Assembly (NCBI RefSeq): GCF_055900595.2
Contig: NZ_CM148325.1
Strand: one strand, 5' to 3'
Length of the DNA: 64,000 nt
The notes below the pieces were generated by a model. That model ran no database searches and had not been told where the DNA came from. It saw only the letters and a list, made by a program, of their open reading frames with translations. Made by a program: the position numbers and the translations under genes. Shown here piece after piece: positions 54,465-57,077 of the stretch (positions within the stretch are counted from its first letter, which is position 1; every line of letters begins with the position of its first letter).

Positions 54465-55925
<1,461 letters not shown>

Positions 55926-55942
55926 TTACAGGAAATAGTACC

Positions 55943-56254
55943 ATGCAGCCAAACGACATCACTTTTTTTCAACGATTCCAGGATGACATTCTGGCTGGGT
56001 GTAAAACCATCACCATCCGCGACGAGTCTGAATCGCACTTCAAAACGGGTGATGTGCTTCGTGTCGGGCGATTTGAAGATGACGGTTATTTTTGCACGAT
56101 TGAAGTCACCGCAACCTCAACCGTAACGCTGGATACACTGACGGAAAAACATGCAGAGCAGGAAAATATGACCCTGACTGATCTGAAAAAGGTCATTGCC
56201 GATATCTATCCCGGCCAGACACAGTTTTATGTGATTGAATTTAAATGCCTTTAA
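55943..56254 (+). CDS. yqfB: ASCH-domain protein YqfB (103 aa)
   Basis: [44 protein letters not shown]... full length. Confidence 0.85.
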
Positions 56255-56414
56255 ATTGAACTCACGCCTGTTAGTTGAAATTTCGCATTTAATTTCATGA
56301 TTTTTCGGAGATTAGTCTCAAATCAGAATTTATTTTAGCTAACAGGTGTTCACTGGAACTATTCTCAGTTACGCTGGAGAGGTATACATGTGCGTGTACG
56401 TTTCTCCGGAGTAA

Positions 56415-57077
<663 letters not shown>

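Follow-up and report, generated by a model that had tools for sequence, protein, structure and literature searches.

Gene arrangement and the inverted repeat

The window analysed here is a stretch of 64,000 nt of the E. coli chromosome, in which the genes yqfB and trhA (yqfA) are separated by an intergenic spacer of 163 nt. An inverted repeat lies within this spacer. The features of the region are given below in window positions, with distances counted from the trhA transcription start site (TSS) where these apply.

55943-56254, + strand: yqfB CDS (N4-acetylcytidine amidohydrolase), from the ORF and the RefSeq annotation, ending in the stop codon TAA at 56252-56254
56259-56276: box 1, an inverted weak FabR-like box, AACTCACGCCTGTTAGTT, at -123 to -106, containing most of the left arm
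56264-56281: left arm of the inverted repeat, ACGCCTGTTAGTTGAAAT, from a repeat search of the window
56290-56302, - strand: IHF-like core, AATCATGAAATTA, predicted from sequence, corresponding to WATCAANNNNTTR with T at position 6 and with an AAAA/A-tract 5' of the core
56326-56336, + strand: A/T tract, GAATTTATTTT, at about -56 to -46, contributing the outer, AT-rich portion of the right arm
56332-56349: right arm of the inverted repeat, ATTTTAGCTAACAGGTGT, from a repeat search of the window
56337-56354: box 2, the validated FabR operator of the trhA promoter, AGCTAACAGGTGTTCACT, at -45 to -28
56347-56352: candidate -35 element, TGTTCA, within box 2
56370-56375, + strand: candidate -10 element, TACGCT, from its position relative to the TSS and from the alignment, TAnnnT being kept in all orthologues
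56382, + strand: trhA TSS (K-12 position 3043184, reverse strand), from the SMRT-Cappable-seq supplementary table (PMC6131387), mapped to the window
56408-56411, + strand: Shine-Dalgarno sequence GGAG of trhA, invariant in all aligned spacers
56418-57077, + strand: trhA (yqfA) CDS, encoding a PAQR-family membrane homeostasis protein, the regulated gene

The sequence-only reading that preceded this work had reported two near-complementary arms in the yqfB-yqfA spacer, and both strings were present. Each arm comprises 18 nt, of which 15 (83%) are Watson-Crick complementary, and all three mismatches would be G.U pairs on the + strand. That the arms are separated was likewise borne out, although the intervening sequence measures 50 nt and not the approximately 55 bp first given. 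The repeat is not a chance match: among 1000 dinucleotide-preserving shuffles of the spacer, 0.2% gave an 18-nt inverted repeat with at least 15 matches, and an equally good repeat was found in 4 of 392 tiles of 163 nt taken from the window. A region of 181 nt around the repeat showed 100% identity across several E. coli strains. A dispersed repeat element (REP, ERIC or MITE) was excluded, the sequence being single-copy in each of 5425 E. coli genomes.

For comparison, 80 orthologous trhA loci were collected and 39 spacers, from Escherichia, Salmonella, Citrobacter, Klebsiella, Enterobacter and Kluyvera, were aligned. In these 39 enterobacterial spacers 84% of the arm-pair cells were complementary, versus 32-47% when the register was slid, and the arms are thus kept among enterobacteria, a point on which the sequence-only reading had proposed a check.

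A second inverted repeat was observed at 56236-56248 and 56285-56297 (TGAATTTAAATGC / GCATTTAATTTCA), with 12 of 13 positions complementary and the arms 36 nt apart. The yqfB stop codon and box 1 lie between its arms; conservation of its right arm (56285-56297) outside Escherichia was absent in the alignment.

Some observations concern the neighbouring genes. Two start sites of bglA map to the minus strand at about 56081 and 55928 of the window (K-12 3043485 and 3043638) (PMC6131387), and one of them lies inside yqfB on the opposite strand, which would provide bglA with a leader of about 159 nt, antisense to the 5' portion of that gene. Within the trhA (yqfA) CDS, Adams et al. (2021) list the 3' end of an antisense RNA, at about 56794 on the minus strand (K-12 3042772, +). 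The YqfB protein of the window was 98% identical to that of the E. albertii representative versus 94% to that of the E. coli representative genome, while for TrhA the order was reversed (99% E. coli, 97% E. albertii); this contrast suggests that within Escherichia yqfB is allelically diverse or has recombined.

The right arm and the FabR operator of trhA

The right arm overlaps box 2, an 18-bp imperfect palindrome carrying the exact FabR core ACAnnTGTnnnnT as published (PMC4804515). Repression of trhA by FabR in E. coli was shown by operator mutation with the mutagenic primer CAGAATTTATTTTAGCTAGTGGGTGTTCACTGGAAC, which changes ACA to GTG; expression went up and the fabR- and oleate-dependent response was abolished (PMC9017321). 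The wild-type counterpart of this primer CAGAATTTATTTTAGCTAGTGGGTGTTCACTGGAAC is found at 56325-56360 of the window, and the mutated triplet, at 56342-56344, falls within the right arm. In Salmonella, ChIP and transcriptomics showed that FabR binds and represses yqfA (PMC4804515), and in a Klebsiella fabR mutant yqfA was derepressed (PMC11481535). Published results on the regulation of trhA by FabR in E. coli nevertheless conflict (PMC4804515, PMC9017321).

A FabR matrix (PWM) was built from 34 distinct orthologous trhA boxes together with the fabA and fabB operators of K-12. Box 2 scored 28.9 bits and was the sole match of at least 10 bits in 64 kb. It was found in 78 of the 80 orthologous trhA loci, lying about 71-85 nt before the trhA ATG in Enterobacteriaceae. 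The right arm is almost certainly the FabR operator of the trhA promoter, and this operator is the already known half of the finding. Among the members of the FabR regulon, trhA/yqfA is the third and least understood; the FabR (YijC) operators of fabA, fabB and yqfA/trhA were reportedly described by McCue in 2001, by Zhang in 2002 and by Feng & Cronan in 2011.

The operators of K-12 fabA, AGCGTACACGTGTTAGCT, and fabB, GGCGTACAAGTGTACGCT, fit the same matrix as the trhA box. Upstream of K-12 fabB (locus positions about 1811-1828, inside the start of mnmC) a further match to the FabR matrix, GGGAAACAGGTGTACCCT, was seen at 9.3 bits, and the known fabB operator lies 157 bp downstream of it. In fabA the only extra match to the matrix was weak (6.2 bits).

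The trhA promoter and leader

The mapped TSS lies 33 nt downstream of the right arm, leaving trhA a leader of 36 nt. In SMRT-Cappable-seq, b2899 (trhA) was recorded as a monocistronic unit and a yqfB-trhA unit was absent (PMC6131387). Box 2 overlaps the core promoter of the gene that it represses, and from its position at -45 to -28 it follows that bound FabR occludes the -35/UP region. A sigma-70 consensus scan of the spacer returned nothing, and the real promoter is evidently non-consensus. The A/T tract was near-invariant, as TTTATTTT, in the alignment of 39 spacers and resembles the distal UP-element consensus. The outer AT-rich ends of the arms appear to lie outside the operators, the right one corresponding to the conserved UP-like tract and the left one to a conserved TGAAA.

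Between box 2 and the candidate -10 element, a block with the sequence GGAAyyATTCTCAGTTAC (56355-56372) was almost invariant in the 39 spacers from many genera, a conservation far above normal for the stretch between -35 and -10. The block holds a -10-like TATTCT/CATTCT (56360-56365), which would predict a TSS near 56372 versus the mapped one at 56382. Another protein may bind to this block, or the block may hold an alternative promoter.

Within the 36-nt trhA leader no conserved structure was detected; RNAalifold gave 0 pairs and the folding energy was ordinary (z = -1.06). The primary transcript begins with a small hairpin of 6 bp (56382-56399). In read-through RNA a second hairpin was predicted at 56374-56412 (CUGGAGAGG...UUUCUCCGG), which would sequester the Shine-Dalgarno sequence of trhA; as the mapped TSS is downstream of its 5' half, this hairpin cannot form in the primary transcript.

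The left arm and a second FabR-like box

Most of the left arm is contained in box 1, whose core in the window, ACGccTGTtagtT (ACGccTGT), has one mismatch to ACAnnTGT. With 2.5 bits box 1 was the second-best PWM match in the spacer but weak in absolute terms, 23 of the approximately 64,000 window positions reaching 2 bits. The matrix penalises ACG heavily because its training boxes were selected with ACA. Since box 1 lies outside the promoter (-123 to -106), it could only be an auxiliary site.

Stronger versions were found in other genera. Roughly 25 orthologous loci carried a second exact core match about 76-78 bp upstream of box 2. When the best PWM match located 65-90 bp upstream of box 2 was scored in 78 loci, it reached at least 8 bits in 22 and fell within the top 5% of the background of its own locus in 41. 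The start-to-start spacing between box 1 and box 2 was 77 bp in 15 loci, 76 bp in 5, 75 bp in 2 and 78 bp in 2; in the E. coli window box 1 stands 78 bp upstream of box 2, while 77 bp is the distance in most genera. Box 1 of Kluyvera sichuanensis, AGTGTACACCTGTTAGCT, scored 28.1 bits, and its reverse complement is identical to E. coli box 2 at 17 of 18 positions. High scores were also obtained for K. ascorbata (TGCGTACATGTGTTAGCT, 19.1 bits), Citrobacter gillenii (18.2 bits) and Klebsiella spallanzanii (17.5 bits).

In the alignment of 39 spacers the columns of box 1 read A39 C39 R nn T38 G39 T39 .. G39, with AT-rich flanks that were saturated. The first T of TGT was kept in 38 spacers and replaced by C in E. 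albertii. Position 8 was A in 25 and G in 14 of the 39 spacers, while in box 2 it was always A; box 1 is looser at this position than a canonical half-site. Read as its reverse complement, box 1 agreed with box 2 at 12.3 of 18 positions, versus 10.0 of 18 when read directly, and in Klebsiella and Raoultella the opposite strand of box 1 shares the asymmetric half GTTCACT with box 2. The two boxes turn their strong half-sites, TGTTAGyT in box 1 and AGCTAACA in box 2, towards each other, and the inverted repeat arises from this arrangement. A pair of sites for a regulatory protein, one of the two possibilities raised by the sequence-only reading, agrees with these results, the right arm lying on the validated FabR operator and the left arm on a conserved inverted FabR-like box.

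Box 1 was also kept at loci with a different upstream gene. In Enterobacter quasihormaechei, Superficieibacter and Phytobacter massiliensis, where yqfB is absent and a divergent RpiR-like gene lies upstream, both the ACAnnTGT core and the spacing were retained. An element belonging to the 3' end of yqfB was accordingly excluded, box 1 persisting without yqfB. Members of the Enterobacter cloacae complex, Superficieibacter, Phytobacter massiliensis and Trabulsiella have no yqfB upstream of trhA; the three such loci that were inspected had a divergent gene for an RpiR/SIS-like regulator of 244-245 aa upstream, and about 20 nt resembling the yqfB 3' end were left beside box 1 at loci lacking the gene.

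In E. coli no FabR regulation is left once box 2 alone has been mutated (PMC9017321), and box 1 is consequently not sufficient; box 2 alone is necessary for FabR regulation in this organism. On balance, the comparison of orthologous loci leans towards the view that FabR binds box 1, at least in some genera. The papers examined all describe a single box and make no mention of a second FabR site at yqfA or of the IHF-like core described below, and the putative auxiliary operator upstream of trhA is apparently undescribed.

Two other readings of box 1 were weighed. It might be a conserved site for a different protein, or form an upstream module of promoter architecture with the TAA-N5-TGAT block described below, its likeness to a FabR half-site being incidental. 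The best-conserved part of box 1 consists of one half-site and a non-FabR flank (TGTTAGyTGAAA), its left half being loose; this, the weak PWM match in the window and the fact that box 2 alone explains FabR regulation in E. coli would all fit such a site. We nevertheless consider it unlikely, as the invariant register AC-N3-TGT coincides exactly with that of the FabR core and several genera have full-strength palindromes of the FabR type at the position of box 1. A by-eye comparison of box 1 with FadR and ArcA, using their consensus sequences, also gave no convincing match.

Alternatively, the left arm of E. coli might be a decaying relic, left from an inverted duplication of the operator in an ancestor and now unbound. 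The weakest versions of box 1 were indeed those of Escherichia and Salmonella (2.5, 3.0 and 1.1 bits, the last being Salmonella), with core changes to ACG and, in E. albertii, a further change of TGT to CGT, and box 2 fully accounts for the regulation seen in E. coli. Against decay, the AC and GT core columns were invariant in 39 of 39 spacers amid saturated neighbours, and the first T was lost in a single spacer. Moreover, ACG occurred in 14 of the 39 spacers across genera and also in Pantoea sp. 1.19, whose sole main operator, AGCTAACGCCTGTACTCT, has the same ACGCCTGT core as box 1 of the window; this looks like a tolerated variant rather than decay, and a relic seems to us quite unlikely.

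The region between the two boxes

A single conserved block, TAA-N5-TGAT (56290-56301), was found between the boxes. It forms part of the IHF-like core, which sits near the midpoint between them. An IHF site has the consensus core WATCAANNNNTTR, preceded on its 5' side by an A/T-rich tract, and by the known geometry of such sites the bend here would be centred about 3 bp away from the point halfway between the two box centres. The IHF-like pattern WATCANNNNNTTR occurred at the same position and on the same strand in 30 of the 39 spacers, 12 of which had the strict consensus; the chance of meeting the pattern at any position and on either strand is 3.6% per spacer. The distance between box 1 and box 2 was also more constant than that between box 2 and the ATG (SD of 0.79 bp versus 1.98 bp).

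Allowing one mismatch, box 1 and the IHF-like core occurred together (34/35 versus 6/43 loci), an association that is formally significant but confounded by shared ancestry and therefore discounted. Kosakonia, Cedecea, Buttiauxella, Pantoea, Erwinia and Pectobacterium were without both box 1 and the IHF-like core, and their upstream DNA was non-homologous, so that the co-occurrence shows a shared module and not independent co-evolution. In the IHF datasets searched, no occupancy was listed at the trhA spacer. A distance of 77 bp does not correspond to a whole number of 10.5-bp turns; it would take a helical repeat of about 11 bp for it to make 7.0 turns. We know of no documented case of looping by FabR, nor, to our knowledge, has looping been established for the TetR family.

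Pairing of the arms in RNA

The sequence-only reading had offered a structured 5' leader for yqfA as its other possibility. This was not upheld: the TSS at 56382 lies downstream of both arms, so that neither is part of the primary trhA transcript, and no covariation was found. In the alignment of 39 sequences 84.0% of the arm positions were paired versus 83.8 +/- 0.6% after shuffling of partners, 190 of 500 shuffles being as high. The covariation score of the arm helix (0.103 versus 0.101 in shuffles) and the number of arm pairs with double changes (3 versus 3.6 expected) gave no signal either. Each arm keeps its own motif, and variable positions change independently. A structured cis-regulatory RNA leader is not supported, the arms being outside the primary transcript and without compensatory change.

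Base pairing between the arms might still occur in RNA, if transcription reads through from yqfB into trhA or within the 3' UTR of yqfB, where a long hairpin could stabilise the yqfB 3' end, provide a processing site or modulate read-through into trhA. As a single sequence the spacer folds well (-51.9 kcal/mol, z = -4.86, none of 200 shuffles being as good), all three arm mismatches would be G.U pairs on the + strand, and at two of these positions G.U is more frequent across species than any other state. Read-through RNA is plausible in that yqfB and trhA have no intrinsic terminator between them; a search for an intrinsic terminator of yqfB gave no terminator-like site in 56150-56500, the loop of the repeat being 50 nt and its arms AT-rich. 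The comparative and transcript data nevertheless make pairing in RNA very unlikely. The paired fraction and the count of double changes were in line with chance, and the central dinucleotides, like the other variable positions, changed independently. Box 1 was kept where a co-directional upstream gene is absent, and the monocistronic trhA unit starting at 56382, without a yqfB-trhA unit, speaks against a read-through RNA (PMC6131387). The Term-seq tables searched showed no 3' end in the spacer, and a permissive Rfam scan of 55800-56800 returned only a spurious Xist match (E = 0.97). As a selected structure, the RNA hairpin was rejected by the pair-count test and by the position of the TSS.

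Discussion

The repeat upstream of trhA is probably made up of the known FabR operator and a second, auxiliary one, and a bending protein may close a loop between them. When carrying an unsaturated acyl thioester, FabR represses trhA via box 2. Box 1 would be an auxiliary FabR site of lower affinity, 78 bp upstream in the window; a sharp bend at the IHF-like core could bring the two boxes side by side, and a second FabR dimer might then stabilise repression by cooperativity or looping. Box 1 of E. coli is degenerate, with ACG for ACA, and its contribution in this organism is probably small. Looping assisted by IHF, which is suggested by the position and spacing of the predicted core, is a doubtful part of this scheme. 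In its fullest form the scheme would amount to a three-part 'repressosome' on trhA, with two inverted FabR operators 77 bp apart clamped by an IHF-induced U-turn, a picture that we put forward tentatively and with low confidence. The extension of such a 'repressosome' to the Escherichia-Salmonella-Citrobacter-Klebsiella-Enterobacter-Kluyvera group may be contemplated with equal reserve.

In the descriptions examined, FabR promoters have one box each, whereas trhA adds a second, inverted and weaker copy 75-78 bp upstream. The fabA and fabB promoters have, in place of a second box, a site for the activator FadR immediately upstream of the FabR box. Loops closed by an architectural protein are known from the GalR-HU repressosome at gal OE/OI and from the NagC operators flanking a CAP site. 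The trhA spacer would resemble these systems in that two operators flank a conserved putative bend site near their midpoint with tight spacing. It differs from them in that FabR is a member of the TetR family, the bending protein would be IHF and the spacing is shorter (77 bp). With structured 5' leaders, riboswitches and attenuators the locus shares a long, thermodynamically stable hairpin upstream of a CDS; unlike in these, the hairpin lies outside the primary transcript, shows no covariation and belongs to no Rfam family.

The inverted repeat is thus largely explained, one half of it being a textbook operator, and annotation as an RNA element is unwarranted. If the proposed arrangement is true, a conserved auxiliary operator and bend site would mean that the trhA promoter is wired differently from those of fabA and fabB, which combine FabR and FadR, and the auxiliary operator could explain species- or condition-dependent differences in the strength of repression. 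A looped complex would be the first FabR repression complex assisted by an architectural protein to be described and would be unusual for a TetR-family regulator. Such a repressosome would couple the sensing of membrane lipids to the state of the nucleoid.
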